This document shows, in pieces, positions 16,501 through 37,061 of a stretch of 64,000 bases of DNA. The first letter of the stretch is position 1; every line of letters begins with the position of its first letter. This stretch comes from Marsupella aquatica. Its lineage: Eukaryota; Plantae; Marchantiophyta. A model generated the notes under the pieces. It had not been told where the DNA came from. It made no database searches and saw nothing but the letters and a program-made list of their open reading frames with translations. The position numbers and the translations under genes were made by a program. Where the stretch lies: the NCBI GenBank assembly GCA_973895155.1, contig OZ316893.1, positions 23,830,015 through 23,894,014 on the forward strand. Reading direction: 5' to 3'.

Positions 16501-17841
16501 AGCTTCAAGGCCGACCTAAGGGAGAAGGACGAGATGCTCGATCAGACTTACGCCAAGATGAACCATATGGAGTCTGTCATCATTGCAGAGCTCGACAAGG
16601 AGCTAAGAGCAACCCGGGAGGAGAGGGCTACCTTGAAGAAAGAATGGGAGGAAGCCCAGAAGGAACTAGAGGAGGCGCGCAAGGACCTGGATGAGACCCA
16701 GGAGGAGTTGGAGGAAATCACGAGGAAGATGGAGAACCTCCAGCGGCGGGCCGACAACCAAACAGAGCGGCTGAAGAAACAAGCCGCAGTATTTAGGTGC
16801 TTGTCTTCATCAGGCCCAACTCCAATTGGGGCAACCAAGTTACCAGGAGTGGTACTGGCCGAAGAAAAAGCCGCGCCACCTGCACCAGTGCCGGAAGTAA
16901 GTGGGAAGGGGAAGGGACCAGCTGCCGAACCAGAAAAGAAGAAGCGGAAACCTTCAGGGTCAAGGAGTAATCCGACTCCACAGGCCGTGGTGACCAAGGA
17001 GGTAGACCCAGCACCAACCTTCGGCATGAACACGGCAATAGATCCCGCTATCATCAAAGGTGGGGATGGTGCGGCCCAAGCAGAACTACTCAGTAATGAG
17101 GCCGGTATCCCAGATCCGCCTCTTGAGCAGGCCGGGGAGACCGTAGCCGAGGCTGAGGCCGTAGCCGATAATGATTCCCGAGCCGATGCCGACGCCGATG
17201 GTGGACCCAGTCAGGCCGATGGAGAGTTGACTCAATCAAGGGCAGGTAATCTGTCAGAAAACAAACCTACGGCAGTGGCTGAGGAGGAAGCGTTGGGGGC
17301 GTCCATTGAGGATCCACCACCGGTGTCGTGACGGTGCAAGGGCGCCGTTCCTTTTAGGAAGGGCGGATGTGGAGGGAGGAGGCGTGAGTGGGCAGGGCGG
17401 GCGCTGATCTCCAAGTTTAGGATTAGGATCAGGACCAGGAGGCGGCCCTGACACTTAGCTTAGTGGGATTGCGGTTCCACTGGTAGGAGCAACACTTGTG
17501 CTCCTACCTTGCTGTACATAGGTAGATCCGGGCAAGTAGATTAGGCTTACGCTGCAAAGAATTAGGCGGATCCACTACCAGGATAAGTACCTGGGCAGTG
17601 GGGAGCTTAGGGCCTCTTCTTTAGCAAGTTTTTAGTTTGCACCAGCCGGGCTGGGATCAAGTAGTAAGAGAAGCTCTCGGTTAGTCATACAGTGACCCTT
17701 GTGTATATTCATGTTTCCTCATGCCTAAGAGCTGAATAGAGTTGGCCTCACGGCTTAGTTCGTAGAGCTTGTGTATGAGATGTACTGTTTGTATGGCAAG
17801 TGCATGGTATGACTCAGTCAGAAGGAGTCATTTTGCTATTT
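13574..17841 (+). mobile_element. Gypsy A 5' LTR, truncated by the Sola-like insertion
   Basis: Begins TGTGATGCCTAG like the copies at 41371 and 46042; colinear with the solo LTR up to GAGTCATTTTGCTATTT (17841). Confidence 0.92.
13689..17331 (+). pseudogene. LTR-encoded ~1210-aa protein (plant-mobile-domain/transposon-protein-like region, acidic linker, long coiled coil), copy 1
   Basis: ORFs 13950-15191, 15037-15720 and 15787-17331 join once TGA (13737), one extra G (~15028) and TAG (15718) are corrected; each lesion is absent from another LTR copy. Contains SGLEAFVRLPW...EFVGSW...LTPKVIAEVFGLP and E/K/Q heptads. Confidence 0.8.
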
Positions 17842-18890
17842 AACACGATTTCGGACCGAACAAGAACTATTTCCTCTAAACGAGAAGTGTATTTTTATTT
17901 TCCGCCGAATCTCGCGAAATCGGCAGTTTTTTTCATCAAAAACGCGTTTTTGGGGAAATAATGTAATTCGTATCGGAGTTCGGATTGAAACAACAAATTT
18001 AATAATGATCAAAACCAATGAAATTCATGCTAACAAATATTCATATTATCAAGGAACAATTAGATCCGAAAAACTTTCTCCTCGACCTCATATTCACGCT
18101 CTCCGAAGATATATGAAAGGTCTTATCTATAAATCCATATCCATGTTTCGAGCCAAGTGCGATAACTGTATCGGACTCCGGATTTGAGCCACGAAAACTC
18201 CGACCCAATCTCAGGTTTCTCAGTTTTTGGATATTTACCAAAAATATTTTACATCACAGTCGATAAGAATTACTGCACGGTTCGTCAAATTTACCTTGCA
18301 GTTACCCTTGCAATTGACCAGTTACCTCCGCAAGTGACCATAGTCAACATGCCATTCTTTCAACAGCAATGCGCAGTCCGATAAAATTATCGCGAAAACT
18401 ACGGGCGACAAAAATACTAGTCGACAATACTAAGATCCTTTGGTTCATCGGTTAAATTTCAAAATTCCTATCCATATGAAGAAAACTCTTCGCAATACCA
18501 ACATCAGATAAATTTATCGCTTCAATTTCAAAATTGCAACTTCCATATGAAGGAACCACTTTTGCAATACCAACATCAGATAAATTTATCGCTTCAATTT
18601 CAAAACTATATAATTTTGCCACGATGCACGTGTGAGAATGAAATTGGAAATCCAAGAAATATACCCTTTTCTGCTATTTTATCGTTTAGGGTGACAACCA
18701 ATCAAAAGTGGACACGTGGGCCAACCCCTCAACAGACACTATAAAAGGGCCATCGCCGATAAGTTTTTAGCGTCATTATCGAGAGTAGAGTTTTGGGAGT
18801 TGTGTTCTTGGAGCAACATTCTGTCCGTTGAGCCTTTTGTTTTCCCTGATTGTGGGAGGATTGCAAAGCCCCATAGTGTCTCGGATAGCC

Positions 18891-21800
18891 ATGTCTCAAT
18901 CAGACACAGATTCACCTTCCAGTTCAGTTGAATCCTCTCCTAATCTTGTCGCTCGCTGTTTGCCAAGTCGCATACTTAAAGCTCTACCTCTCTCACAGCA
19001 AATAGTGCCCGAAATCTCTGACTCAAATTCTGATGCAAGTTCTGGTCCTGAGCCCAGTGCTTACTATGTGTCGCCTAGTAAACCTGAGAAGCGTCGTCTC
19101 TTGAGTGTTCCATTGCCAAGAAATGAGAAACTTTCAATCCCAGGTTTAGGTCCGAGACGTCGCTTCAGGCCATCCATCCCGGGTTATGGAGAGGGTATCC
19201 GGCGACCGATACACGTATCGCAGTCGGCATTCAAGTCGCCACATTCAACACAAGTTCAACGACGGATCTTTCAGTCTCCGGGTGAGGATCGGGACATAGA
19301 AATACAAAGACCGATACGGCGATCGGTCTTTGCATTGCCTGGACTGGATGTGCGAGCAAGCAAGGGAATCGGACTGCGAAGTCCAGACTCGGCCCTTTCT
19401 CGAATGGTCCGTGGGAATCGTGGTGAACAAGTGCTCAATTTTCCAGCAGCTCGCGGAGTCGTTGGGACTGCACGTGCGAATCCAGAATCTCCAAGTTCTC
19501 AAGGGCGGACTGTCATTGGTTCCAGGCTCCAAGTATCGAGGAGCGGTCTTAGTGGCGTTCGGGTTATGTATAGAGAGCCACGGAGTCCAATTGTGTTTTC
19601 AGATGAGTCGAGTGCATCGGAGGACGAAGATGAGGAAGGAGATAGAGAATCCGATATAATAGCACAAGTTGTGTCTGAATGTTTAGAAGGAGCTGTCGAA
19701 GAGAATAGCTATAGTCGTCTATTCAGTGCCCCTCTAAATGCGTCAAGGAGATCTATAGAGGATGGTAGCTCAGCAGAGAGTGATGCATCTATTCGCGAGG
19801 CACCTGAAGGACCCAAAAATGCCAATGTTATGAACGGATTTCAGGTTGTAGAGAAGTCAAATGAGCCTAGTAAAAAAGATAGGGACCGAATTACTAGGAA
19901 AGACAATGTGATAAATGACAAATTGAATAGAAACAAAATGAGAGAAATTCATAAGTATTCGTGTTGTGATAATTACTGTCTGCGGAATTTGGGTCTGCTA
20001 GCCGTGACGAAACAACGCACTTATTACTATGGGCTATCCTACCCAGAGAAGAACGTCCTTCTAAGAGGATGTGTGAAGGGTGGGCATGCTGGTGCAAGTG
20101 GTTACTCAGTTAGCGGTAGATCCTTTTGTCGAAGTGGTTTTAAGAAATTATTTTCACTGAGAAATAATCGTCTCCAAAAAATCTCGCAGAACATGTTTTC
20201 TCGGATATAGATCGGTACAGTTTGTCGAGAAAAATCACCCGCACATCTTGGTCTCGTCCAATGGCTGGATGATTTTTTTTCCACAAATGTCGAGAGTCTC
20301 CCCAACAAGGATATCTTTCATTTACCTGACAATTGGACAAAAACAGAAGTTTTTGATGCCTTCCAGTCCGAAACTCTAATGCGCCAAGAACAAGGCATGA
20401 CATATTCGTGGTTTGTTCGCATTTGGAACAAGGAGTTTCCTCGCGTGCGCATCCCCAAAAGGAGCCGTTTCTCCACCTGCGCCCCGTGTACTGAATTCAA
20501 AGCACTCCGTGACAAGGCAACACTCGAAGCAGAAAAGAGTAAATTTCTAAACCTGTGTGTTACTCCCGATAATTTTATCGGGTTGAGTATTCATGTGCTT
20601 CTTCTTTGGCCATGTGAGTGAATATATCGTTTGAACAGTTTGAATATTGAACCTGATAAATTTATCGCTGTCACAGTTTTTCATTACGGTCTTGTGTTTG
20701 AATACTGAACCCGATAAATTTATCGTTGTCAGGGTTTATCATTACGGTCTTGTGTTTGAATATTGAACCCGATAAATTTATCGCTGTCAGGGTTCAACAT
20801 TGCGGTTATCATGTTTTGTCCTAAATTTTTTTATTGTTGTAGGAAAATTCTCAACATTGCTAAACGAGCATCGGAAGGCACAAGCAGTCGAGAGGGAGAA
20901 GTTAGCAAAGCACCGGAGCAAATGTTACAAGAGTCCGGAGAAATATTTGGGCATCTGTATTGATGGAATGGATCAAAAGAAGACAGAGTTACCTCATTTT
21001 ATTCGGTGTCTGAAGAATATGGATGAAAAGTATTTCATCCCCGTACACGTAGTGGGTTGTTTGATCTTCAACAAACAATTAAGTTCAAATGTTTTTTTGA
21101 ACTATCCAAATATTCACAATGATAGCAACCTGACCATCCACGTTATCCAGCATATTCTGAATACCTGGGAAGGTCTGCTCCCTCCAGTGCTTTACCTCCA
21201 GCTTGATAACACAGCTCGGGAAAACAAGAATAAATATCTTATGGCATATTTGAATATGTTGGTGGAGATAGGTGTTTTCCAGAAAATAAAGGTTGGTTTC
21301 CTATTGGTGGGGCACACCCATGATCAAATTGATCAAATGTTTAGCAAGTTTTCTTCAAAATTGAACAAGCGGAAAGCTTTCCGGTTGGACACTCTTTCAG
21401 CAATCATAGAGGAATCCTACAATCCTACGGCAAAGATATTTTTCGTCGACGAGGTTGCCGATTTCAAGAAATTTGTGTCAGACAAGGATCAAGCAAATGA
21501 CAAGGATATGGATGGTCAGGTTCTACGTACTCTCCATGGCATAAGTGCTCAAAAACAATTTCGGATTACTAGAGTACTCGAAGATGGAAGTGCTCGGTCC
21601 GTATTCCATGCCAAACATCTTTCAACGACAATCGATTGGGGGGAGACGGTGGATTTTGTTTGGTACATTCCATCATCTGGAATGTGGGTCGCACCACAAA
21701 TGGCATTGAAGTCGACCACGGGAGCGACAGGAGACAATGAAGAGCAAGAGAATGATGCTGAGGAACAAGATGAGCGGGCGGCTCAAAGTTATTTGTCAAC

Positions 21801-22452
21801 TCTTCAAAAATATCGAAGAGCAATTGAAGATGGATTCAATTACTTTGACGACGCAGATCGTCTATGGTGGGGTCGTTTTTTTGACAAACAAAAAGAAGTG
21901 ATTCAGCACCACCTGAAACCTGCACAATGGAGTTTTGATTGGAGTTGGCCCAAGGTAAACGTACAGAGAGAACTTCCGAGTAATCCTACGGAAGCAGCAA
22001 TGGAACCTAGCTTGGTTGATAAAGTAGCGGGTGTGAGGACAGTCATGTATTTCGGAAGTCGAAGAAAAGTCACGGAAATTGGAGACTTCAAGGATCTAGA
22101 GGTGAATACTAAATTTGCAATGATATGTGTAGCAGCCCATCAGGATCCCAAGGGAAGACCATTCTGGATGGCAAAAGTGACTGAGATTCTCACAAGAATT
22201 AACGACATCCCGGAGCGGATTAAAATCACTTGGTATGCAATGGATTCGGAGGAAGAGTCTGCAATTGAAGGCAGATATTATCCGGAGAAAGAGGCTTCGT
22301 CTAGCAAAGTACTGGAGGATGAATTGTCCCTATCAGAAACTACCGTTTATGCGTATAACTTTGCGTTATTGGCAAAGAGTACTCTCCCTATACAAACAAG
22401 ACGAATCATTCAAAATGCAATGGAGACTGTAGTCGTTGATAGTCGAAGCTAG
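18891..22452 (+). pseudogene. Sola-like DDD transposase (~1085 aa; exons 18891-20538 and 20843-22452; one premature TAG at 20208)
   Basis: CCDNYC, FCRSGF, CAPC..H motifs; candidate catalytic IDGMDQ, LYLQLDNTARENKN, FLLVGHTHDQIDQMFS. GT-AG intron 20539-20842 restores frame (EK-R-KF); the frame continues through the stop. Confidence 0.85.
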
Positions 22453-22780
22453 TTTCAGGTTTAAGTTATAATGGTTATCGTTCCCATGAATATGTACAGT
22501 GGTTATCATTCTGGGACTATGTACTCCGAAGCTATAAAGATATCTTTTTTTTTAAATAATTGCAATGACAAACCAGTTAGAGAATACAATGCTGTCCGAT
22601 AAGATTATCGACAACTCCATTCCCCCAGCAGGAACACCGCGACAGTCCGATATATGCAAAGTCCGATAAATTTATCGCATTAATAAATGTGACAAAGGTT
22701 CTTCCTCATGGAATACAGAAGTCGATAAATTTATCGACAACTTCATTGGTGATTGACATTATCCTAACGAGCACACGCAA

Positions 22781-23893
22781 CTAATCTAATAACATGTCGT
22801 TGAGATCATCCTCATTTGGTGTTCTGGGAGGCTCTTCCTCAGTTTCTTCTTGTTCCTCTTCGGTCTTCTTCACGACCTCAACTACGTAAGTCGATGTCCC
22901 GAGTACACCCAATTGGCCTGCAATTGGTGGTTGAATCTCATGACCTTCAACGCCGTGCCCTTCAATCTGGGATTCTTCATATAAATTCCAGTTTGACTCC
23001 AGAATCATGATCCGGGATTTTACAAAACCAATCTGCGCAGAACTCTTATCAACAGCACAACCCTGGCGAGAATTGAGGAGCGTAGCAGCTAATGTCGATC
23101 CGGTTCCACAACAAAGATCAATAACCCAATCCTCTTTCTCAGAGAAATGGGAAACAAACCAAGCCCCTAAACCAACAGGCTTCTGATATGGGTTCACAAC
23201 AAATCCCAATGGATCAACGGACTTCTTGGTTACACATGGAACCTTGATGATATTGACGCGAGACTCATCCGGTTGGAAATTGTACATGTTCATGTTCCGA
23301 ATGCCTTCCTCGCTATAGAAACCTATCGACCAGTTCTCAAAACCCCACGCCAATCGAGCTCCAGCGGGACGCTCATGAATGTTAGTCTTCTCCCAGATTC
23401 CAGCCTCGACCCCACAGTTGCATACACTCTCCAGTGCAGACATCACCATATGCGTTTGTTGTAGTGAATGGATCACAACAAACCTCCACTGCTTAGCGGT
23501 CGTCATCTTTGAGAAACTTGTCAACATGTCTAAAATGTCCTTTTCTGTGAAGGCCACTTCATCAAACTCCGAACCAGGAGCATTAAAACCATACGGAATA
23601 TCCACAACCGCAAGGGTGTAAGCCCTTGGCTGAACAAAAGAATCCAAAATTTGAACATCACCAACATGGAGATAGTAGGGAAAAGAATCCCTGTCTGCAT
23701 TTTTCCATGTTTGTTCAAACGCTTCTGCTGTGCCCTCGCCTAAGGACCTCAGCCGATTGTACTTATCGATTGCAGCAAGCACAAAATTCTTAAACACATA
23801 AGGGATTTCAGCTGAGGGAACAATAACCTCCCCCGCAGAATTATAAGTGACAGCCGGAACCACTTTGCTTTTCCTTTTTGAATTAATCTTCAG
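22781..23893 (-). CDS. Amino-methyltransferase exon (N6_N4_Mtase-like, beta motif order)
   Basis: Catalytic-type LAVVDIPY (~23591-23614), then IWEK, ENW, NPYQKP..L...V..FS...DWVIDLCCGTGSTLAA....R...AVD (SAM-binding motif after the catalytic motif). Confidence 0.9.
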   Translation of the reverse strand: MKINSKRKSKVVPAVTYNSAGEVIVPSAEIPYVFKNFVLAAIDKYNRLRSLGEGTAEAFEQTWKNADRDSFPYYLHVGDVQILDSFVQPRAYTLAVVDIPYGFNAPGSEFDEVAFTEKDILDMLTSFSKMTTAKQWRFVVIHSLQQTHMVMSALESVCNCGVEAGIWEKTNIHERPAGARLAWGFENWSIGFYSEEGIRNMNMYNFQPDESRVNIIKVPCVTKKSVDPLGFVVNPYQKPVGLGAWFVSHFSEKEDWVIDLCCGTGSTLAATLLNSRQGCAVDKSSAQIGFVKSRIMILESNWNLYEESQIEGHGVEGHEIQPPIAGQLGVLGTSTYVVEVVKKTEEEQEETEEEPPRTPNEDDLNDMLLD

Positions 23894-25547
23894 CTGTAAG
23901 AATGTCAGACACATCTACAGTTAGAATAGCGTGAGATGAATGCTAAGGCCGATAAAAATCTCGCGATGGAGCACGCTAGCCAATAAATGGAATCGCTTAG
24001 AAACCAACAAAGGAATGCTAAAGCCGATAAAAATCTCGCGATAGAGCATGCTGTGAGAGGAAGGCTTACCGCGTCACTCAATTTCTCCGCCCATATGCCA
24101 AGGACCGAGACATCTGTTTCGTTGGGAAACATTTCTCTGCATGTTGCCCGATCGGGCTGACCAGATATCTGCAAAAATAGTTTCTTCACCTTGGCAAGCT
24201 TTTTCAACTTCTCACCTTCCTTGTGCATTTGATCCAAAGTGATCACCTTCTCGATAACCCTATTCAAGAGACGCTTGACATGCTCCTTATTTGACAGTCC
24301 TTGGAGACCTCGAAATGAATTTAAGTTGAGGTCACCAGCAAATTTATTCATTTTAATCTCCCTTACCGTCAAAGGTTTCACCTTTCCCTTTGCGTTCGTC
24401 GTTGCCACAATTTTTTTGGGTTGTCCTAAGACAATACCTTTCTCCCACATCTGGAAAATCTGCTCCTGAAGATCCCAAATTTCACCTGTTCGGAAAGCAA
24501 TTTGGAAAGCCGGATCATGTTTGGCCATGGAGTCACGAACTCCTGGCGTGTACTCCATCATGCATTCTTGACAACATGCTTCGCGGACATCTTTAGTCAA
24601 GCCCACACCCATTTCAAGGAAAATATTGTGACAAGCGCAAACTTGGTCAATTTTAGTCATGTTCTTCCGATACTCCTGGTCATAGTTATGCTGGAAGCCT
24701 AACTATCGGAGCTCGGATCTCGTAAGCCCAGCGTAAACCCAAGCTTCCAGCTCACCATATATTTGCTTCCCGTACATTTTAAACAACTCGGACTTTGCCC
24801 GAGCACCATGATTCCCTCCAATAATTCTATACTTCCATACCCTTGACTTCAGGATGTCCCAATCTGCGGTTGTGGGACAATCCTTCGGATCCACACACAG
24901 CACGAACGAGGCACTGAAGTTGGTGGGGTTTTTCATGAGAAGTATCTTGATATTTTCCACATGCAATCTATCCACTGGTCTAATCAAAGTTGTCAAATCC
25001 CCCTCCTCATCAAATATGAGATTGTCGACATGCAGAAGCACAGTTGTCCTTTGCACCCTTCGTTGCATCAGAAGACTGAGCTCTGCCTTGATCGCGTCCG
25101 TCTCATACATCGAAAGAGCCGTCTCCTCCTCCTGATCAGCCTACAAAAGCGTTGCAAATTCAATTAAGGAAAGAAACTGCGAGATTTTTATCGGAGTTCG
25201 CATTTGTTCAACATAACTCCACAATCCGCAATTCAGGAAATAAACAGCGAGATTTTTATCGGATTTCGTGTTTGTTAAACAGTACAACGACGTAGTACTT
25301 ACCAATGGCGCCGTAGGAACCACGACTGGAACTGATGGAATTGACGGAGCTCTATCTACTTCTGCAGCCACCGTCTCAGTCCAGCCAGTCCTCTTCCTCT
25401 TTGTGCTAAGTCCAGAACCAGATGGCCCGGATCCCTCGGATCCTTTACTTTCGCTTGGTTTAACGGATGGTCCTCGATGGTTGCCCCGACCTCTCCCACT
25501 ACCGCCAGTTTCCTGGCTCTTCTTCCCACCGTCAGAGGTTCCCGCGG

Positions 25548-27075
25548 TGTCTGGGGGAAAAATGTGGTTCTTGAGGAAGCACCGGGCCTATGGCAGCTAG
25601 TGTTAAGAGAGAACTTAAGTTAAGATCATGATTACTATTCTAGACTGGGTAGCAGACACCACAAGGAACGGTTCCGTGGATGAAAGCACAATATCATAAC
25701 CCTTTTCTCCATACCTACGGACTATTGCCTCCTTGGCAGCTACCTTGGGTCGAGTTACAAAACGAATATCTCCCAACGAGAAAGAAACGAGAGGCTCATC
25801 GGAGGGAGGTTTGTTGAGATCCATCTCAATACAAGATAAAAATTGTGCAAGCCCAATCCTGCCCGTAAACTACATAAGGGTATACAATTGGCTCTATTGA
25901 ATTTAATACCGCAGTTGCAAATGCTTCTTCAAAGTGAAAAGTCATATGCTGGCGCATTATCTCTTTTTAGAGTACATGAATTCTAATAAGGAAAGGATTA
26001 GGGAGTGGAAGAATAGGTACTGGTCTGGGCATTATCGTACTATCAAATATTCCATCCAACTAATTTTCATTCTAATGACAAGAGATAGAATCATTCAACA
26101 AAAAGATCATTCATTTCAAACAAATATCATGCATTGAGTTAACTCTAAGTATATACATGCAGATGTTTATCTTAATAGGTTGATCTTCTTTTGAATGAAA
26201 ATACTATCTGAAGGTCCAACTCATACAAAATACCTCTGGCCGAGCCGAAGCTCTAAGCAAGAATGCATGAGTGGGTCTACTTCATAAGGATTTCACCCAA
26301 AAGAGAGCATATGATGTCAAGGCATTGTTGAACACTTTTCAACTCTTTAGAACTTAATAACCATCTCCTATCAAATGACAACACTTTCTGAAGGTCCAAC
26401 TCATACAAAATATCCCTGGCCGAGCCGAAGCTCTAAGCAAGAGTGCATGAGTGGGTCTACTTCATAAGGGTTATATTCATAGAAGAGATCATCAAGTCCA
26501 ATGGATTTTTAAGACTTCACAACTTAGTTGATGAAAAATGGGGAGTGAGGGGAGAGAGCCCCTCTCCTCTTTATTTATAGTGCTCACACCTCAAGCACAC
26601 GGATCAAGCATGGCACACGGATGGAAGCCATGTGTCACACATCCAAGGCAAGTAAGTGTGCTAGTACTGTAGTTACGTGAGCGGAGCAACTGTAGACAGT
26701 ACACTGTAGCATGCACACTGTAGATTGTACACTATAGCATGCATACTGTAGATCGTACACTGTAACATGCACACTGTAGATCGTACACTGTAGCATGCAC
26801 ACTGTAGATCGTACACTGTAGCATGTACATTGTAGCATGCACACTGTAGATCGTACACTATAGCATGCACACTGTAGGTCTTGCACTGTAGCATGCATAC
26901 TGTAGATCGAACGATATAGCATGCATACTGTAGATCGTGTACTATAGCATGCACACTGTAGGTTGTGCACTGTAGCATGCACACTATAGACTGCATATGC
27001 GAGAATTTAAACTACTATCCTATACTACTAAGCTATACTTAGGAGGAACTTACTAAACAAAGAATCCCCACGACA
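25548..27075 (-). repeat. Gypsy B 3' LTR
   Basis: Near-identical to 33104-34631. Confidence 0.95.
26690..26995. repeat. 14/28-bp minisatellite inside LTR B (also at ~34246-34551)
   Basis: Tandem CACTGTAGCATGCA / CACTGTAGATCGTA units. Confidence 0.9.
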
Positions 27076-27247
27076 TATCACCCCTACTAAACCTGTGCAG
27101 CCTCCGGTCTGCACCACACTTTAATAGTCACCCCTACTAATTTTGTGCATCTTGTAGTCTGCACCACACTTAATAGTCACCTCTACTAATCTTGTGCATC
27201 TTGTAGTCTGCACCGCACTTAATAGTCACCCCTACTAATCTCTTACT

Positions 27248-30200
27248 TTACTCAATGAATATTTCTTCCTCTTGCTTTTCAGGTTCTTCATCTTCTTCTT
27301 CTTCCTCCTCTTCTTCCTCTTCTTGGTCTGAATTGATGGGATCTTCCTCTAAAAAACGTGTTCGCCTTTTGAATATTTTCACTCTTTTTCTTGCATAAGG
27401 CACACGATGAATTGCTCCATCCAATTCACGGAGAGTGTAAGTGGAATTTGGGTGAGTAGTAACTACTACAAATGGGCCCCTCCAACGTTGTGCAAATTTC
27501 TTGATCGAGGAGTGATCTTGTCCGAGTCCGCCTTCAGAAACTAAGACCCAATCCTCTTCTTGGATTGTCTTGGGTCTCAATCGATGGGTCTTGTCAAAGC
27601 GGGATTTGTTAGCCATTCTCTTTTGCTTCAATTGTTTAATGGCGCCTTGGATCTTTGTAGGAGTGTGATCAAACTGCTCTATGCGACGAAGAATCAAATC
27701 GTCTTGAGATACACCATCCTCCCACTCTATTGCCCTCCAACTATTAATGTCTTCTTCTATTGGCATGAGTGGAAGTTGACCATTGATCAACTCTGAAGGT
27801 GCATATCCTATTATCGATGTGCAAGTTGTTCTGTGTGCCATGAGTGCTAGGGGAAGGAAATTTGGCCAAAGTGAGGTTCTTCCCTTGCATGCCTTAATCA
27901 AGGCATTCACAATTGGTTGGTGTCCCCTCTCACTCTTGCCATTACCTTCAGGATTGTAAGCAGTTGTCAATTTGAGATTCACCCTAAACTTCCTGAAAAA
28001 TGCAACCGCTTCCTCTGCATTGAGCTCCCCTCTGTCTGCCCTCATGCGATCAAAGCATCCATACCTTGCAATGATGTCCTCCAATACAAATCTGCATATT
28101 GCCTCGGTCTTATTTGTTGTCAAGGCTCTACCTTCAATGTAAGAGGAGAGGTCCTCAATAGCCAAGACAAGGTACTTGGCTCCTCTTACTCCTCTCGGTA
28201 TGTGTACCACATCTACAGCCCATTGGTAGTGTAGGGAAAGAGGGTACATGGGTTTTAGTCCATCTCTATGCTTCACCTTCGAGTAGAGTTGACACACTTT
28301 GCAAGTTTCCACATACTTGCTTACATCTACATACATTCCTGACCACCAATATAGTCTTCGAATCCTTTCATAAGTAGCTTCTCGCCCCTTATGTCCTGCC
28401 ATGTCGGAATCATGTAAGTCATGTAAAATTTTGTGTTTCTCTTCATCTCTACCAATGACCCTTAGAAGTATGTGCCCCTTCTTCTTTGGATGCTTCCAAA
28501 GGGATCCACCTCTTACCATGAATTGGTAAGACTTCTTCCGAATTTTGTTGAAGTCTTGCTTACTCCATGTTGAATCTTTCTGCAACGTGGCAAGGTAACG
28601 TCCTATCTGTAACAATTCCCCAGAATAAGCTTCCTCTTCAAACCTCAATTCCCCTTCATCTTCTCCATATGTACTATGAAGGCACATTCCTTGGTCCTCC
28701 TTGTCCCTATAACGAGCTCGGGAAAGCATATCAGCTACTGGATTATCTCTCCCAGCAATGTGCTTTAACTCAGGATTAAACATTCTGATGAATGCTATCC
28801 ATCGAAGCATTGCAATATCTGGAGTATCACAATTGGCTATCATTCCCAACAAGGGTAGGCAATTTGTCTCCAGTATTACATTTGCTCCTATCAAATAGTC
28901 TCTTTCTTGGCGAAGTGCTACCTTCGCACCCCACAACTCTCGTTTTACTTGAGGATAATGCCTGTCTTTCTGTAAATATTTTTGCCCCAAACCGTGCGGC
29001 AAACCTTTGTCCTTCCTCATCTTGCCCAACTGCCCATCCAGATGCATGAGGACTTGAGTCAATGGTCACAATTATTGGGTCAATACCATTGTACTTCAGA
29101 GGTCGTAATACCGGTGAGCTAGTCAAAGCTTCTTTCAATTGTTGCATAGCCTTTGTATGGCCTGCACTCCATACAAACCTCACATTCTTCCTTAGAAGAT
29201 CATAGAGAGGTTCTGCAATGTGAGCAAAATGTGGTATCCATATTCTGTAGAAGATGCAAGCCCCAAGAAATCTCCTTACCTCTGAGGTAGTTCTGCAGTT
29301 CTCCATATCCTTGATGGCATCCACTTTTGCTTCACATGGTCTTCTTCCATAAGGGCCACAAACTTGCCCTACTACCATGATCTCTTGTAACCCGAAAGCT
29401 GACTTCTCTCCAGATAGAGTTACTCCTACTTCCTTGAGTCTTTGTAGAATAGCTCCCACATCTTGTAAGTGCTCCCACACAAACTGTCTCAGACCATCTC
29501 CTCTAAGTGTTTGATCCCTCTCCTTGTACAAACACCCTTTTATGGGGATGTCATCAAGAAAAGGTCTAGTCTTCTCTGGAACAAACGGTTGCAAAATCCT
29601 ATTCATGGCATTTTACAAATGGGCCACTGAGTTAGTTGCACCTTGAGGAAGGGTGCACATTCTCAACAACCCTAGTGGCGTTCTCATAGCAGTAATGTCT
29701 CTGCTATCTTGGGCAAGCTGAAACTGATCATACCTTGAGTATAAGTCGCCAATGGAGTAGATTGCTCTCCCAGCAAACTCCTCAGCAAACTCATCCACCA
29801 CAGGTCCTGTGCCCACATTCCTTATGGTGACCTTGTTTGGTGGCTGCATGTCTTGAATGAACCTTAGCTTCCCATTCTTCTTTCTCACCGTGAACCACCG
29901 ATTTGAGTACGGAGCGTTTGATCTCTCAAGGATTTTGGCATCTAACTTCTCCTTGAGTAACTCCACCAATTTAGGCATCAGTGCTCGTGGCACAGGAATT
30001 GGCTTAAGGTCCCAAGGAACATGTGGAACAGTGAAGATTACCATTGGTGTGATCTCCCTTGGATCAGCACATCCAATCTCTCCAATGGAAAAGGAAAAGG
30101 CCTTTTCATGTTTGATGATCATCTCCTTGAAGGCTCTTCTCTCTTCCTCTAGTAAACCCTTATCACCAATCTTTAATTTGAGCAACGTCTCCTCAGTGAA

Positions 30201-32991
30201 TTTATGCCCAATCTTAGTACGATCTCTAAGACTTGGCTCCTCCTTTGCTTGCCTCAATATTTCCTTAGCCTCAGATGGCAAGGGAACTGCTGCAGGTCGC
30301 ACCTTCTTGTCCACTGTTTTGTACTTTGTGTGTACTTCTGCAAAGCGCTCAATGTAACCATACACATCCCTTTCCACCTCCACTTCTCCATTTTCTTCCT
30401 CAATGTCTCCAATAATCTCTCGAAGAGAGGGTGATAATCCCCTTTCCTCTAGTACTCCTTCTATTCTCTCTTCAACCTTCAACACTCCTAATGTGAACAA
30501 ATCTTTTTCTTTCTTTTCCAACATCTTCTGAGCTCGCCTCTTCACACCACCTTTATGAAAATAGCTCACTTCACTAGTCCTACTCACACCAACAAAAGAG
30601 GAATGAACCTCCATAGACGAGACTAAAGGCTTGGCGTCCTGCCTGCTCGTTTCTCTTAGCGGGACGCCTAGTCGAAACCCTTCATACTCTGATCGGACCT
30701 GTACTCCTCCACTGTTCTTAATTCCCGACGATCTCTTGTACTACCTGGCCGAAGTGTGGGAAATTGAATCTTCTTCAAGTCATCCTTGCTCTTCACTTTT
30801 GCCATGTGAGTACCATCGTCAAGTACCATGGTCTCTACTCGTAATTCCGTGATGAAAGAAACACCAAGAATAAGAGGATATGGAAGTTTTTCAAATACAA
30901 AGATATTGATAGCTTCTACCACATTCCCAAGTTTGATCATGACATGCTCCCCACAAGGGATTTGCCCTTGTGCCCACTGAATTGACATTCCATTTGATGT
31001 CACAATCAATCTTTCAATGCCCTTTTTGGTATGTCTCTTTAGACATTAGATTCAACTCAGATCCTGAGTCTAGGAGTGCCCAAATTCCTCCTTCAGCACC
31101 AAGCAATTGCACCTCAATCTCCGGGCAAGCTCTTGCCCAATACGGTTGGATTGTTTCCCGCAAATCCACCTCATGTAGGGCTACATTGCCATGAATACCT
31201 GAAGTTGCTTCATGGTGACTCATGGTAGCACAAAATACATTTCCCTCCAATTCTTCTTCTTCTTCTTCATCTTCTAGATCATCTTCATAGTCATAGCTAA
31301 GAATCTTGGCAGTTAGTGCATGAGGTCCCTCCTTGTAAACCCTTTTTCTTCTTGCCCTATCCAAGATCTTGCCTTGTAAGTCTAAACGAAGACTTCCAAA
31401 AAGTTCTCCATTAGTGAACCCCCTAGCCTCTTGCTGCCAAAATTTCTCGGCAATCACTTCTGGATCAACAGTTTGCTCCACCTCTCTAGTAAGCAAATAG
31501 CCTGGGCTCTTCTTAGCACCTTTCTTTGGGGTGTCAGTATCCATTGAGCTTCCATGGGAGATTTCTTCTTGACTCTTGCTTGTGGACGCTTCAGGCTCCT
31601 CAAATCGTACTCCTTTCTCTTTGGCTTGACGTGTGAAGCGAGGTCCTACTTCGGGTCTCTGTTGTTTTTCTCTCCTTTGGGTTTCTTCCATAGAAGTGCC
31701 TTCATACCTCCTCTTATCTTCCACAGCGGCATTCCATGCTGCTCCTACTTCCGCAGTGATAGAGTTGATCAACACAGGCACATCCCAACCGGATTTTCTC
31801 CTGATACTTTCTGCAAGTCTCTTCCTCTCAATAATATCAAGATGCTCTATGGAAGGCAGATCCTTCTTAACTTGAAGACTGAAGACAGAAGGATCACCAT
31901 ACATCGCTGCAGCACTAGAAACTTTCTCTCTCATTCTCTGTTCCACAATCTGCTTCATTCCTCCTCGGTTCACATTCATTGGTATTGGCTCTCCAGAATC
32001 AACAAATGCAATCTTCCCTTCCACAAACTTGACATGTCGAAGTCACAATGCTTCTGTCAGTTCTCCACAATCCCTTCTGTGATGCTCCTTGCTATCACAC
32101 CACAAACAATTCCAGTTTTTATTCAAGGCTGCTAGTGATGTTCCACCAGGGTTTTTGTTCTCCAAGGCTTGAATTGAAAGAGCAAGCTTTGCTATCATGT
32201 CTGTCAATGATGCTATGTCGCCCCCTTCTGTGATGCTGCTTTTGACTTCTTTTTCTCCTCCATCAGTAGTGCTTTCTTCTCTGACTTTTCTCAAGTCTAG
32301 AATGGGAGCTTCCGCTTCTTGATCGACCTCCCTTCTCCTCCTTTGCTTTGTCACCTTGTGGATTGCAGCTTCTGCTTGTTCCCAAGTGACTTCATCCGCA
32401 TCTGGAGCAATAACATCTAGAGCATTGTCCAACTCTACCCTCAAAGGTATATCAGCTGCACGGATCAAAAGACCCCCTCTTATGAGACTGATTATTGTTA
32501 GATCCTTTGAAGATAGCTGATGGTAGCGCCTATTGAATTCCCTCAATAATTCTTGAGGTCCCAATTTCTTGTTTTTCTCTTGTACCCAACCAAGGAACGT
32601 GGCTGCAGTAACTCGATCTGGATCTTCAAATCGAAACTCCTCTCGATCTCACCCTCATTTCAAATGTTTTCCAATCCTCTTTGGCTCCTTCCGCAATCTT
32701 GGTGATGATGTCTTTTAATTCTGATTCCACCAATGATGCAAATTCATGAATGGCAACCTTCTCACTGATGTTGTGGATGGCTACCTCTGTCCAATACTCT
32801 TTCAAGTACCGGGTTGCTCTTCTCCCATCGAACTGCCCAAACTTTGCTAACAAGGCTTGTAAGCACTTGGTCATACGACTTGCTTCCTCCTTCTTCTGGT
32901 TCTCAGGTGCCTCTCTTCGTGCTTTGGCCTCCATCAAACTCATAAACATCTCAGTCATCTCTTCCATAGTTCCTCCTACCATTGTGAACAA
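27248..32991 (-). pseudogene. Gypsy B gag-pol (frameshifted, stops)
   Basis: Gag knuckle CLWCDSKEHHRRDC; protease ALLDSGSELN; RT YSNRWFTVRKK..LRF, LPQGATNS, PFLDDIPIKG; RNase H TIDSS, DNPVADMLSR; integrase H-H-C-C, RADRGE, YNPEGNGKSER, WRGPF. Confidence 0.93.
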
Positions 32992-33103
32992 CTTCTCCTT
33001 TGCTTCTATTTTCTATCAAGCTTCTTCTCTCATCAATATCCTTTTATCTTTGACACTAGCCTCAAGATAATCCCCGAGATAATCCCCAGTATGGTCGCCA
33101 ACA

Positions 33104-34631
33104 TGTCTGGGGGAAAAATGTGGTTCTTGAGGAAGCACCGGGCCTATGGCTGCTAGTGTCAAGAGAGAACTTAAGTTAAGATCATGATTACTATTCTAGA
33201 CTGGGTAGCAGATACCACAAGGAACGGTTCCGTGGATGAAAGCACAACATCATAACCCTTTTCTCCATACCTACGGACTATTGCCTCCTTGGCAGCTACC
33301 TTGGGTCGAGTTACAAAACGAATATCTCCCAACGAGAAAGAAACGGGAGGCTCATCGGAGGGAGGTTTGTTGAGATCCATCTCAATACAAGATAAAAATT
33401 GTGCAAGCCCAATCCTGCCCGTAAACTACATAAGGGTATACAATTGGCTCTATTAAATTTAATACCGCAGTTGCAAATGCTTCTCCAAAGTGAAAAGTCA
33501 TATGCTGGCGCATTATCTCTTTTTGGAGTACATGAATTCTAATAAGGAAAGGATTAGGGAGTGGAAGAATAGGTACTGGTCTGGGCATTATCGTACTATC
33601 AAATATTCCATCCAACTAATTTTCATTCTAATGACAAGAGATAGAATCATTCAACGAAAAGATCATTCATTTCAAACAAATATCATGCATTGAGTTAACT
33701 CTAAGTATATACATGCAGATGTTTATCTTAATAGGTTGATCTTCTTTTGAATGAAAATACTATCTGAAGGTCCAACTCATACAAAATACCTATGGCCGAG
33801 CCGAAGCTCTAAGCAAGAGTGCATGAGTGGATCTACTTCATAAGGATTTCACCCAAAAGGGAGCATATGATGTCAAGGCATTGTTGAACACTTTCCAACT
33901 CTTTAGAACTTAATAACCATCTCCTATCAAATGACAACACTTTCTGAAGGTCCAACTCATACAAAATATCCCTGGCCGAGCCGAAGCTCTAAGCAAGAGT
34001 GCATGAGTGGGTCTACTTCATAAGGGTTATATTCATAGAAGAGATCATCAAGTCCAATGGATTTTTAAGACTTCACAACTTAGTTGATGAAAAATGGGGA
34101 GTGAGGGGAGAGAGCCCCTCTCCTCTTTATTTATAGTGCTCACACCTCAAGCACACGGATCAAGCATGGCACACGGATGGAAGCCATGTGTCACACATCC
34201 AAGGCAAGTAAGTGTGCTAGTACTGTAGTTACGTGAGCGGAGTAACTATAGACAGTACACTGTAGCATGCACACTGTAGATCGTACACTATAGCATGCAT
34301 ACTGTAGATCGTACACTGTAACATGCACACTATAGATCGTACACTGTAGCATGCACACTGTAGATCGTACACTGTAGCATGTACACTGTAGCATGCACAC
34401 TGTAGATCGTACACTGTAGCATGCACACTGTAGGTCTTGCACTGTAGCATGCATACTATAGATTGAACGATATAGCATGCATACTGTAGACCGTGTACTA
34501 TAGCATGCACACTGTAGATTGTGCACTGTAGCATGCACACTATAGACTGCATATGCGAGAATTTAAACTACTATCCTATACTACTAAGCTATACTTAGGA
34601 GGAACTTACTAAACAAAGAATCCCCACGACA
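33104..34631 (-). repeat. Gypsy B 5' LTR
   Basis: Near-identical to 25548-27075; PBS adjacent. Confidence 0.95.
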
Positions 34632-35579
34632 GCGGCATCTCCCCTGCCGCTACCTCTCCCTTTCCCTTTTCCACTTCCCGAAACCCGACCAGAAGTTGTA
34701 GGTTCGTCCACGTCAATATGTGTAGAGGATTGCAATGGTTCTTTCTGCCTCGATATTTTATCAGCATTAGAACCACCGCTTCCACTTGAACCTGGTTTCT
34801 TGAAAACAATTTTGCGGACAGGTTTGAACTCTTCACCCACAAGTCTCTTGTACTCTGCATTCACCCTTGGAAGCATGATGGCATCACAATCTTGCACATA
34901 CTGGCCGATCCAAGCCGAACCCATAACAATCATCTCTCTTGCTGCCCGAACATCGGCAACAAGGGGATCTTCTGGATAACTGTCCATCGATTTCTCATCA
35001 AAGTTATCGAGAGTAACAATGAGAGATGTGAAACCCTTGCGCCCACACATTGTCAAGAAACTAAGGCCCTCTGTCAACACTTTTCCCTCCCCGTGGCCAA
35101 CCATGAACTCGACGACGGCAATAGCAATGACAGGGCCATACGAAACATTAACCTTCGCCGATTTTTGCAACTGGACCCAAAGGATTGGGGTAACACAATC
35201 TTCAAAACCCGTGGACTGTAATCTGGCGTCACGGAAGTACCATGACTTCTTGATACACTTGATCTCTTCACAAATGTCTTCACTTGTCCAAATTGCATTG
35301 GTGAGGCTTGTCATGAGACTTTCTGCCTCAGCAGATCCACTCTTTCCACTAGCAGCCATGGAAAAGTCTGCAAATAAACAAATTCCAATGCAAAGAGCGA
35401 TAAAATTATCGCTGCCAATCTCACAGCACATGTGGACACGATATCTCATCACACAAGGACAAAGAGACCGATAAAATTATCGCAAAAGTGAGCCTTCTTT
35501 AAATTGACGGCCGAGTGTACAGGTCGAAGAATCAGCTATGGAACCCTAAATCCAAAACCTTAACCCCTAAACCTAAACC

Positions 35580-36293
35580 CTAATCATAGTTGAACCTCGC
35601 CAGAGCAAAGCATTCGATCCGCTTCTTGGGCCATTGGGGAATATGAGTGACGCGATGATCATAAGCCCACAGCCAATGGAAATCAACTTCACCAGTCTCA
35701 GGATTCACTACTGCTACTGAATACCGGCGTGACGGAATGTCACAACAAGCATTTGTGCAGCATGGACAGATCTCACCATTGGCAAGGACGTTCGTCCACA
35801 GGCAACTTACATAGATCAAGTTAAAGAGCCCACAGACCGGCTGGGGGGGGAGTTGACGAATCTTGTATGAATATAGTTTCCCACCAGTGTCAATAAAAAA
35901 CTCGGTGGCAAGAGGATTGTCCAGCTCGTCAATCACATCCTGAATCTCATCGAATGCTCTACGTCTATTTTCGGCATAGAATTCTGGCTCATAAGCAGGA
36001 TTGCCCTTCACAACATGACAGTAGTGGAGTATAAAACATCTTACTGCACTGGTGTTCAGAAAGAGTAGGATAACTCTTCTAGAAAATCCAACATATCTAT
36101 CCCACCGAATATAAATTTCTCCCCCTACCTGATCTACGTAGAAGTGAAATGCGTTATGGTAAAACGGTTTTACTACCAGCCTGCATATCTTTAAAATTAG
36201 TGACTCATCCAGCCTCCTTAGCTGGTCCAGCATGGCTCCATTCCCCCATTCTGGAGGATCCGGGAAGGGTACAAAAATGCGTCGCTCGAGCAT
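35580..36293 (-). CDS. Cargo ORF (237 aa) with a weak F-box-like N-terminus and Cys-rich C-terminus
   Basis: Uninterrupted ATG-start ORF; LDQLRRLDESLILKICRLV resembles an F-box; C-terminal ICPCCTNACC. Confidence 0.5.
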   Translation of the reverse strand: MLERRIFVPFPDPPEWGNGAMLDQLRRLDESLILKICRLVVKPFYHNAFHFYVDQVGGEIYIRWDRYVGFSRRVILLFLNTSAVRCFILHYCHVVKGNPAYEPEFYAENRRRAFDEIQDVIDELDNPLATEFFIDTGGKLYSYKIRQLPPQPVCGLFNLIYVSCLWTNVLANGEICPCCTNACCDIPSRRYSVAVVNPETGEVDFHWLWAYDHRVTHIPQWPKKRIECFALARFNYD

Positions 36294-36581
36294 GGCCTGA
36301 TCACCGAATAGAAATCAGGAATAAATTTTGGAGAATATACTAATTACAATTCTACAAGTTTCATCCAACTTACAGTACCTTGTATAACGGGCTGTGAAGC
36401 CAATCTTGTCAGCTAATCGTCCGAAGAGGCGCAAAAAAATACACTCTGGACCACACAACCCGAAGTCAGGGGAGGCAGAGTCAATTATATTCAAAGTATT
36501 TCTTTACAAGCACCCAAAATCGACTAGAGGAATGAGGAGTGCGATAAATTTATCGGATGTTCGCTGCAATGCCTCATCCAC

Positions 36582-37061
36582 TCAGACTCGTCCATGCCAT
36601 GCAAGAATTGTCCGCTTCCCGCTTTCTCCAAGATTCACCCAAACTCTAAGAAACGCATCTAATCGGTCATACGAGAAGCACCCAAGCATATCTATGGGAG
36701 GGAGGAAATGAGTTTCCTCTCGGAAGACCCTAGCAATATGTAGGTTTGAGAGAAGGACGGCATTAGGAATGCTTGCGAGCATTTTGTTTATGTCATTGAT
36801 CTCACGGACTACATATTTCAATAGCGCCCAAAATCGTGTACCAACAACAAGATGGTTCCATTTCTTCGAGGTGGCTCCAAGACAAATGATTGTTCTCATT
36901 CGAGTCAGTCGTTCTTCTGGTAGAAGTTTTAGGTCAAGGCCAAGGTGTTCATCTTGTGTGCAAGACAAGGCTAGGAGGGGCCAAATGTGAGATTCAACGA
37001 GTTCATCGGGAAGTCCATTCAACAAACTTCCGCCATGAGCCCACCAAACCCAATCCTTCAC
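36582..37061 (-). CDS. F-box-like cargo ORF, probably 5'-truncated
   Basis: LLNGLPDELVESHIWPLL ... LGATSKKWNHLV....W matches the F-box pattern LPDEL....I...L ... S+.W..lv. Confidence 0.6.
   Translation of the reverse strand: MKDWVWWAHGGSLLNGLPDELVESHIWPLLALSCTQDEHLGLDLKLLPEERLTRMRTIICLGATSKKWNHLVVGTRFWALLKYVVREINDINKMLASIPNAVLLSNLHIARVFREETHFLPPIDMLGCFSYDRLDAFLRVWVNLGESGKRTILAWHGRV

Follow-up and report, generated by a model that had tools for sequence, protein, structure and literature searches.

A ParB–methyltransferase accessory gene and dispersed CGA-N8-TCG palindromes in a Sola-like transposon family of non-flowering plants

The window, i.e., the whole 64,000-nucleotide stretch of Marsupella aquatica DNA analysed, harbours a broken and decayed Sola-like DNA transposon, in which the transposase gene converges with a gene for a fused ParB–amino-methyltransferase and palindromic sites are dispersed through the non-coding DNA. 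The accessory protein may serve to mark its own element: it would bind the element's CGA-N8-TCG palindromes through its ParB-type module and methylate the element's DNA, and this methylation would help to resist host 5mC silencing. Judged from sequence comparison, the chances that it is such a self-targeting, anti-silencing accessory protein of the transposon family appear evenly balanced.

Structure and decay of the element

Once the Gypsy B retrotransposon is taken out, a unit of 10.1 kb remains (Table 1), which confirms the predicted ~10-kb unit with a transposase gene and a convergent three-exon gene. Gypsy B proper (25548–34631) has LTRs of 98.4 % identity and is bracketed by two GCGG copies, and the empty-site junction at 34632 is present in contigs of runs X1, X3 and X4; it is a later insertion, outside the element proper. 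The transposase (1085 aa) carries a DGMD / LDN / GHT-D-ID triad and matches DUF7869, which we take to be Sola; no PDB sequence match was obtained for it.

A left terminus at 17842, starting with AACAC, is probable: homology to Gypsy A ends at 17841, where Gypsy A contigs read into other letters. The left end thus begins with AAC, as do published termini of plant (AACAC/AACAT; PMC12973397) and brown-algal (AACCG; PMC12477816) Sola elements; four intact plant elements of 9.9–11.2 kb are given in Table S2 of PMC12973397. The right boundary lies at ~37033 (not at 37060, where the element had been thought to end), since contigs of the element pass into different sequence at this point and those of Gypsy A join at 37032. 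The right terminus has therefore been lost to a deletion, and neither a TIR pair nor a TSD is readable. Only the left flank survives, the left end has no reverse-complement match anywhere in the window, and none of the element copies seen has both termini intact. With one nonsense codon per gene (in-frame TAG at codon 440 of the transposase and at codon 469, 24700–24702, of the methylase gene) and the right end deleted, the window copy was rejected as an active element.

ORF X and ORF F are unlike each other and yielded neither a family in Pfam (E ≤ 0.1), NCBIfam or PHROGs nor a meaningful PDB match, leaving their earlier label as F-box cargo unsupported. Rfam gave no match.

Table 1 Features of the element (no strand is given for non-coding regions outside genes)
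Feature	Position	Strand	Description
Left non-coding arm	17842–18890		Five palindromic sites: 18160, 18379, 18506, 18578, 18757
Sola-like DDE transposase gene	18891–22452 (exons 18891–20538, 20843–22452)	+	DUF7869, E 1.9e-49
Transposase intron	Between exons 18891–20538 and 20843–22452	+	Four palindromes: 20567, 20654, 20712, 20770
Spacer between convergent genes	22453–22780		Three palindromes: 22597, 22664, 22723
ParB-methylase gene	35359–34636 + 25547–25303 / 25140–24070 / 23893–22781	−	Three exons, 1050 aa
Exon 3	22781–23893	−	Beta-class amino-methyltransferase (DIPY ... YQKP ... DLCCGTG) and acidic tail
Intron 2	23894–24069	−	Two palindromes: 23950, 24025
Exon 2	24070–25140	−	Predicted ParB/sulfiredoxin-fold domain (LIRP ... 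IIGGNH ... QHN), then ParB-type helical DNA-binding region
Intron 1	25141–25302	−	Two palindromes: 25180, 25248
Exon 1, 3' part	25303–25547	−	G/S/K-rich linker; frame runs unbroken over the Gypsy B site
Gypsy B LTR retrotransposon	25548–34635, including one copy of the 4-bp duplication	−	LTRs 25548–27075, 33104–34631
Exon 1, 5' part	34636–35359	−	Start codon at 35359; ~190-aa domain without known family
Region upstream of methylase gene	35360–35582		Two palindromes: 35398, 35469
ORF X	35583–36290	−	~236 aa; near-identical contigs at a depth like that of the methylase gene
Perfect palindrome between ORF X and ORF F	36542–36555		
ORF F	36585–37033	−	5' end cut by deletion at 37033; F-box-looking start by eye only

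The ParB module

All motifs predicted for the accessory protein were located (IIGGNH at 429, DIPY at 778, YQKP at 916, DLCCGTG at 939). Both introns of its gene are of the GT-AG type and in phase 0, and the donor position of intron 2 is common to the window copy and the related loci L001, L004 and L005. The domain encoded by the 5' part of exon 1 is 30–31 % identical to its counterparts in L001 and L004, without a family in Pfam, NCBIfam or PHROGs; its best Atlas score (0.83) is a lead at most.

Exon 2 is predicted to adopt the ParB/sulfiredoxin fold, based on an AlphaFold model (pLDDT 85) of the L001 exon, which shares 47 % identity with it. In agreement with the ParB assignment of the original prediction, Noc and ParB lead the Foldseek matches of this relative (E 1.3e-5 for Noc to 7e-4), and VIA aligned it with PadC (Z 10.3, rmsd 2.9, 99 residues aligned), pNOB8 ParB (Z 8.7 over 216 residues) and KorB (Z 8.4 over 174). 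A helix-turn-helix DNA-binding domain following the ParB N-domain has moderate model support: DNA-binding domains of KorB, SopB and ParB align with the helical half of L001, the HTH_ParB match on L001 (E 8e-4) is below the curated cut-off, and the helical half alone obtains low VIA scores (Z 4.0–5.3). Palindrome binders (Noc, ParB, KorB) lead both fold searches, and the helix-turn-helix would probably, as a dimer, read the palindrome; homodimer prediction for the ParB half, run without alignment, gave no answer (score 0.00).

In ParB CTPase clamps, CTP is bound by the arginine patch G-x-R-R-x-R-A. The present family has G-G-N-H-[G/S/T/C]-x-x-A at this position, and conserves instead an upstream arginine (29 of 31 rows), G112 (32 of 32), H114 (31 of 32) and H154-N155. 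Since the second arginine of G-x-R-R is replaced by G/S/T/C, CTP-gated sliding is doubtful. That the nucleotide pocket would allow spreading from sites every 1–2 kb, such that the mark covers the element, is conceivable at less than even likelihood.

Palindromic sites

The 10.1-kb unit contains 20 sites with at most three mismatches to CGATAAATTTATCG (17 had been counted before), compared to one in the other 53.9 kb of the window and to a mean of 0.37 (maximum 2) in 30 dinucleotide shuffles. Their location is non-coding in 19 cases (P 7e-11). When the spacing of CGA-Nk-TCG is varied, the unit peaks at k = 8 with 17 sites (other k, 0–5), and so do all five related loci (22, 6, 8, 12 and 5 sites; other k, 0–6), 48 of these 53 sites being non-coding. 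No such peak is found elsewhere in the window (5 CGA-N8-TCG sites in 53.9 kb) or in 12 loci with unrelated methylases. The CGA-N8-TCG core is common to the window copy and all five relatives, whereas the inner 8 bp vary by family. These element-specific sites fit self-targeting, as originally proposed.

It appears unlikely that the palindromes are instead binding sites of the transposase, with the ParB-methylase being recruited by protein contact or acting elsewhere. Plant transposases have been described as sequence-specific activators of cognate copies (10.64898/2026.08.24.746577), and 5 of the 19 non-coding sites are grouped in the left 1 kb. The sites also co-vary equally with the transposase; since transposase and ParB share one history, however, co-variation cannot tell which of them reads the sites. 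Binding by the transposase is countered by the other 14 sites, which are found at a distance from the end, within introns and spacers (6 of them within the methylase gene or directly upstream of it), by the left-end sequence itself, which is without a palindromic site, and by the fixed 14-bp two-fold site, which suits a ParB-type dimer. Moreover, the ParB gene PAG3 has adjoining inverted-repeat arrays on an element of another transposase superfamily (10.1101/2025.02.11.637652).

The methyltransferase module and its predicted mark

As predicted, the C-terminal domain has the motifs of a beta-class amino-methyltransferase, with motif IV preceding motif I (permuted order), QKP and a SAM-binding motif I, and it matches PF01555 (E 8e-5 on window exon 3, as low as 7.6e-18 in relatives); at pLDDT 36, the single-sequence fold of this exon gave no usable model. 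Among solved structures, the family profile best matches DpnA (E 1e-15), M.MboIIA (9e-13) and CcrM (2e-10), while N4 enzymes score weaker (E 6e-5 vs 1e-15 for DpnA). By sequence, the family comes closest to bacterial 6mA enzymes, both those of restriction-modification systems and those of the orphan type. Motif IV of the family reads D-x-P-Y with variable x (I/V/A/F/L), the first proline usually being substituted. The window protein has DIPY rather than the SPPY of N4 writers; DPPY occurs in several distant members, and SPPY, among the motifs listed, only in one distant relative (P0165). A tie to the known 4mC writers is thus not sustained: their motif IV is SPPY/TSPPY, and solved 6mA enzymes score far better. 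The predicted mark is probably 6mA rather than 4mC, and the enzyme is likely active in intact copies.

Relatives, selection and CpG content

Related sequences come from Chara, Riccia, Diphasiastrum, Adiantum and Ginkgo, and a HMMER search retrieved 269 representatives at E ≤ 0.001, including longer fused relatives that a word search did not find. In three of five related loci (L001–L003) the 3' end of a convergent transposase gene adjoins the methylase gene; the sequences of L004 and L005 stop 360 and 305 bp beyond the methylase stop codon. The ParB exon and own palindromes are present in all five. Identities run in step, with 59 % between window and L002 for methylase and transposase alike, and 74 % (methylase) and 72 % (transposase) between L002 and L003, showing that the ParB-methylase is inherited jointly with the transposase. 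The predicted mobile, intron-bearing module of ParB and amino-methyltransferase gains support from this shared history. All methylase, ParB-exon and transposase pairs have pN of 0.06–0.35 against pS of 0.52–0.88 (window exon-1 rows left out), which demonstrates strong purifying selection on both genes.

In a quick, midpoint-rooted tree of 104 rows with a methylase match of at least 170 residues (N4CMT and MpDN4MT1 left out), named members cluster by host lineage. Long residence therefore fits at least as well as the suggestion that the element spreads such enzymes among plants. No close relative was found in viral contigs or prokaryotic genomes. A distant-clade profile yielded generic methylases at one genome locus and 11 viral loci, without a match to the ParB or the helical profile, and phage records gave weak methylase-domain matches only, none covering 80 % of the query.

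CpG observed/expected ratios in coding DNA are 0.77 (0.69–0.84) for the window element and 0.78 for L001–L005, compared to 0.36 (Gypsy B), 0.27 (CACTA), 0.52 (Harbinger), 0.60 and 0.62 (Gypsy A) in the only regions compared, five neighbouring transposon regions without a host-gene baseline. Of the G/C-to-A/T differences from read contigs, 14 of 33 are in CG and 9 of 33 in CHG context, versus 35 % expected, in this best-supported subset of more than 1200; they show that the window copy was itself methylated. Given this decay, any protection was incomplete or has been lost. As a measure of lowered 5mC the CpG data are indirect, and they speak in both directions. Whether the benefit to the element consists in anti-silencing is, in our estimate, about evenly poised.

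Dam methylation times or licenses the transposition of Tn5 and Tn10. A comparable role of the mark, or a function as the protecting partner in a selfish cut-or-protect system, in either case with no effect on host 5mC, is improbable. The closeness to bacterial 6mA enzymes, the nucleases and kinases among ParB/Srx folds and the CG/CHG decay of the window copy would agree with it, but no nuclease partner was identified, CpG retention across six sequences is not predicted by it, and the sites are spread through the interior. Even less can be said for a catalytically dead methylase domain, with the protein acting as a SAM-binding scaffold or, in the manner of VANC, by binding alone. The non-canonical motif IV would allow it, and DIRS1-borne N6A-methylase domains are believed to be inactive (PMC4738411); on the other hand, D, P and Y of motif IV, QKP and motif I are kept family-wide, distant members have DPPY or SPPY, and purifying selection is strong. 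Finally, a passenger gene, captured once and of no benefit to the element, would be in line with the damage in most copies seen (the window copy, L004 with a stop, L003 with a break), but is already largely refuted and very improbable in view of the 269 representatives, the conservation of the protein, which parallels that of the transposase and persists where synonymous sites are saturated, and the same pairing in a brown alga (PMC12477816).

Comparison with known systems

The architecture, of which the original prediction knew no earlier description, is already known from the Ectocarpus element Sola1-1_Ec32, whose accessory gene (ParB-like plus N4/N6 methyltransferase, 1104 aa) lies on the strand opposite to the transposase and for whose product a self-binding, self-modifying role has been proposed (PMC12477816). 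The window element belongs to the same class, with a single ~1100-aa gene of this composition (1050 aa) opposite a Sola-like transposase and a probable AAC- terminus; the likeness is one of architecture, and the brown-algal element is larger (21.5 kb) with a 282-bp TIR. The passages that describe it name no palindrome or binding site (PMC12477816).

In the red alga Bostrychia, Plavaka elements (PAG2/PAG3) carry a PF01555 methylase and a ParB-like protein, and inverted repeats beside the ParB gene were proposed as parS-like self-targets (10.1101/2025.02.11.637652). These elements differ in superfamily (EnSpm/Plavaka), in having separate genes (ParB-2OG oxygenase and methylase-SET) and in their tandem repeat array, those of the window element being dispersed through introns. 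The same paper gives VANDAL as the sole known case of a transposon that binds and modifies its own DNA. As in VANDAL/VANC, where they occupy intron, intergenic and terminal regions, family-specific short motifs are found in non-coding DNA of the window element; VANDAL, however, belongs to the Mutator superfamily, its motifs are 8–9 bp and non-palindromic, and anti-silencing is demonstrated for VANC but inferred for the window family (PMC5735166). Similarity of VANC to ParB or amino-methylases was neither found nor expected.

Bacterial ParB, Noc and KorB clamps share with the window family the ParB/Srx N-domain followed by a helical DNA-binding region and dispersed two-fold sites. The family differs in GGNH[G/S/T/C] replacing the arginine patch, the fused methylase, the introns and a low identity (7–21 %); neither ParA nor a C-terminal dimer domain was identified in it. 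N4CMT (PMC8885841) and MpDN4MT1 (10.1101/2021.02.12.428880) are likewise beta-class, prokaryotic-type PF01555 enzymes in eukaryotes, but are domesticated host genes with SPPY/TSPPY instead of D-x-P-Y, described without a ParB fusion. Chlorophyte-type Dam also fuses a eukaryotic amino-methylase to a ParB-type module, but is of the unpermuted Group-2 with the HTH only, whereas the window family combines a beta-class enzyme with a whole ParB N-domain (PMC4738411).

What is new is the range in land plants, a conserved site that is now defined, and the signal in CpG content. In its furthest form, which we consider unlikely, widespread Sola transposons of non-flowering plants would run a parS/ParB-style system on chromatin: a clamp would load at CGA-N8-TCG sites every 1–2 kb, spread and write 6mA (or 4mC) beside CG, the mark would block host 5mC and keep the element active, and co-evolution of the helix-turn-helix with the inner 8 bp would give each family a private address. 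In the published passages on ParB-fused self-marking (PMC12477816; 10.1101/2025.02.11.637652), the idea is based on how domains were annotated in one brown and one red alga. The present finding takes the ParB-methylase transposon class into land-plant lineages and supplies a 14-bp site (conserved core, family-variable spacer), a domain predicted to read it and hosts whose genomes are public, by which the idea becomes testable. If true, self-marking would mean that these transposons counteract silencing by means of an enzyme; it would also be a source of plant 6mA/4mC confined to transposons, and would provide a methyl writer that is both compact and site-addressed.

Organization and boundaries of the element

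Gypsy A is interrupted by a decayed Sola-like DNA transposon with a convergently arranged accessory gene, which encodes a ParB–amino-methyltransferase fusion. The transposase gene and the accessory gene contain one TAG each. The match of a second Gypsy A copy in the window ends at 17841 and is followed by other sequence, and Gypsy A contigs from public runs likewise diverge past this position. Since contigs of the element continue with other letters at 37033 and Gypsy A contigs join at 37032, the right end was lost by deletion. A junction free of Gypsy B is present in contigs from three of four runs, and the unit is 10.1 kb long without this insertion. The original prediction of one unit of about 10 kb at 17842–37060 thus holds once Gypsy B is removed, but its right limit moves to 37033. 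The left end starts with AACAC, as does a published Sola terminus of a moss or fern element (PMC12973397, in which the TIR columns of two rows look swapped); that of Ectocarpus starts with AACCG (PMC12477816). This resemblance is suggestive only. Contigs from runs X2 and X3 lack a stretch of 1237 bases within the transposase gene, which suggests internal-deletion derivatives of the element.

Features of the element and its surroundings (window coordinates)
Feature	Position	Strand	Details
CACTA remnant	5486–8785		Transposase_21
Gypsy A long segments	13574–17841; 46042–50320		91 % identical; coiled-coil ORFs
Third copy of Gypsy A segment start	41371–42036		666 bp
Sola-like element	17842–37033		interrupts Gypsy A
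Transposase gene		plus	two exons, 1085 aa; DUF7869, E 1.9e-49
Segment skipped in contigs of X2, X3	19288–20526		within transposase gene
Accessory gene		minus	three exons, 1050 aa; two phase-0 GT-AG introns
Gypsy B	25548–34631		nested in element; LTR identity 98.4 %; 4-bp duplication
14-bp tandem array	26689–26995; 34245–34551		inside Gypsy B LTRs
AAACCCTA-type telomere-like run	35540–35583		between ORF X and methylase gene start; absent from loci L001, L004
ORF X, ORF F		minus	two additional ORFs of the unit
MITE-like inverted-repeat element	52101–52964
Harbinger transposase	61136–63075		DDE_Tnp_4

Inheritance with the transposase and host range

A metagenome scan yielded five loci (L001–L005) with relatives of the ParB-methylase. 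In three of them, a transposase gene converges on the methylase gene and is represented by its 3' end, and the remaining two break off no more than 360 bp from the methylase stop codon; the ParB exon is present in all five, the first exon in two. Methylase and transposase identities run in step (59 %/59 % for window and L002, 74 %/72 % for L002 and L003), and in pairs of both proteins synonymous sites are near or at saturation with pN of 0.06–0.35. Thus, the accessory gene travels with the transposase, in line with the proposed mobile module. Near-identical contigs of run X2 have similar depths over the transposase (829), ParB exon (866), exon 1 (750–908) and ORF X (899–933), with 1291 over ORF F; since depth does not equal copy number, no listed contig spans both genes and the source of the window may itself be among the runs, this similarity supports co-travel weakly.

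HMMER retrieved 269 representatives (E ≤ 0.001), the nearest relatives of the window protein being metagenome proteins. Species names are carried by 11 of the 30 proteins looked up, i.e., from Chara braunii (3), Ginkgo biloba (1), Adiantum nelumboides (4), Riccia sorocarpa (2) and Diphasiastrum complanatum (1); known here as proteins alone, these cluster by host in a quick tree. Among proteins that did not contribute to the profiles, three from Adiantum and one from Riccia match the ParB, helical and methylase profiles alike. The Diphasiastrum protein matches the methylase profile only. Flowering plants are represented by none of the 11, a sample too small to claim absence. One Chara protein (P0058, CBR_g41648) comprises two ParB-helical-methylase units in 1825 predicted aa, reflecting either a tandem pair or a merged gene model.

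Methylase domain

Judged from its sequence, exon 3 encodes a beta-class amino-methyltransferase, with motif IV (DIPY) followed by QKP and motif I. PF01555 matches this exon with an E of 8e-5, under the curated cut-off, and relatives down to 7.6e-18. DpnA (1e-15), M.MboIIA and CcrM rank first in the family profile search, while N4-cytosine enzymes score far lower with the same methylase profile (6e-5, 0.013). Nearly all motif IV sequences listed for the family read D-x-P-Y, in contrast to the SPPY/TSPPY reported for N4CMT and MpDN4MT1 (PMC8885841; 10.1101/2021.02.12.428880). Because of these two differences, 6mA is the favoured predicted product; of the 4mC or 6mA writer originally proposed, the amino-methyltransferase motifs stand, and a link to MpDN4MT1 and N4CMT finds no support. 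A distant member with ParB, helical and methylase parts (P0165, 858 aa) has SPPY as motif IV and is possibly a 4mC writer within the family.

ParB half and N-terminal region

A Pfam search with window exon 2 gave no match. The structure of the stop-free L001 exon (47 % identical to window exon 2), predicted from a 38-row alignment, reached a pLDDT of 85. With this model, Foldseek placed Noc and ParB on top (E 1.3e-5 to 7e-4), and a wide structural aligner retrieved PadC (Z 10.3), pNOB8 ParB (8.7 over 216 residues) and KorB (8.4), followed by SerK and sulfiredoxin. The fold search thus bears out the suspected ParB/sulfiredoxin-like domain. DNA-binding domains of KorB, ParB and SopB align to the helical half of L001 (Z 4.0–5.3), which also matches HTH_ParB (E 8e-4). 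The ParB domain has a conserved nucleotide pocket with G-G-N-H-[G/S/T/C] where an arginine patch is expected. ParB pockets of the CTPase type carry this arginine patch, and the present pocket would accordingly differ from that type.

The first 190 residues of the accessory protein are conserved (30–31 % identity to L001 and L004); Pfam, NCBIfam and PHROGs gave no family match and the ESM Atlas no assignment. For the ParB exon of L001 (L001:1894–2976, counterpart of window 24070–25140), the best Atlas matches were clusters of fungal DUF3723 proteins, with a score of 0.95 and 175 of 256 features; 78 % of the cluster members carry PF12520. DUF3723 is described as a conserved Starship cargo gene (10.1101/2021.12.13.472469), and a literature search for DUF3723 together with ParB found no paper. 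Starship elements may harbour a ParB-fold protein with a comparable role.

Palindromic sites

The unit contains 20 sites within three mismatches of CGATAAATTTATCG, 19 of them non-coding, versus 0.37 in shuffles and one in the other 53.9 kb, confirming the element-specific palindromes first noticed. Palindromes of L001–L005 differ from those of the window, yet CGA-N8-TCG is common to all. Spacing 8 between CGA and TCG occurs 17 times in the window unit and 22, 6, 8, 12 and 5 times in the loci (other spacings, 0–6), and 48 of 53 sites in the five loci are non-coding (P 1e-20); no spacing-8 peak was found in 12 loci with unrelated methylases. The window and L001 have CGAT half-sites, L003–L005 have CGAG, and L002 has a mixture. 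At residue 213 (L001 numbering), which lies in the predicted recognition helix, the window and L001 have P and L003–L005 have H; this correlation is confounded by descent, amounts to one evolutionary event and is only a lead.

CpG retention

CpG o/e in coding DNA is 0.77 (0.69–0.84) in the element and 0.78 in L001–L005, compared with 0.27–0.62 in five neighbouring transposon regions, which serve as reference in place of a host baseline. At codon position 3-1, element sequences reach 0.70–0.78 versus 0.21 and 0.52 in the two Gypsy elements. Age alone fails to explain this retention, because Gypsy B is younger than the element insertion. Pointing against resistance to 5mC, 23 of 33 listed differences between window copy and read contigs (the best-supported subset) lie in CG/CHG context (35 % expected; P 6e-5). 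Together, these patterns suggest that the lineage multiplied with little CG methylation and that the window copy seems to have been methylated at some time after insertion.

Proposed function and relation to known systems

The likeliest mechanism is that a ParB-type dimer recognises the element's own palindromes with its helix-turn-helix, which would bring the methylase to its own element. Site clusters recur every 1–2 kb, and the protein possibly spreads outward from them. If the enzyme methylated the invariant A or C of CGA, the mark would sit beside or within a CG, in a position to hinder host CG methylation. All steps beyond the anatomy are what we infer. Alternatively, the palindromes may be bound by the transposase, or the protein may serve transposition control or a selfish protect system; further rivals are a dead methylase and an accessory gene that is a passenger. 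VANC provides a tested precedent of motif-guided anti-silencing (PMC5735166).

The original prediction regarded the architecture as undescribed. However, Sola1-1_Ec32 of Ectocarpus already has, like the window element, a ParB-like and N4/N6 methylase gene opposite the transposase (1104 versus 1050 aa), and its authors, who cite Iyer 2011 and the Bostrychia paper, put forward a class of accessory proteins that bind and modify their own element (PMC12477816). Bostrychia PAG2 and PAG3 are described with inverted-repeat arrays (10.1101/2025.02.11.637652), and further ParB-linked eukaryotic methylases are catalogued (PMC4738411). All four active plant Sola clusters (4006–4009; 9.9–11.2 kb), from mosses and a fern (PMC12973397 Table S2), are big enough for accessory genes. 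A literature search covering few subscription journals and supplements in part returned no report of a land-plant member or a CGA-N8-TCG site. The window element is real, inherited and unusual, and belongs to a class already sketched in algae, to which it adds a defined site, a candidate reader and land-plant hosts.
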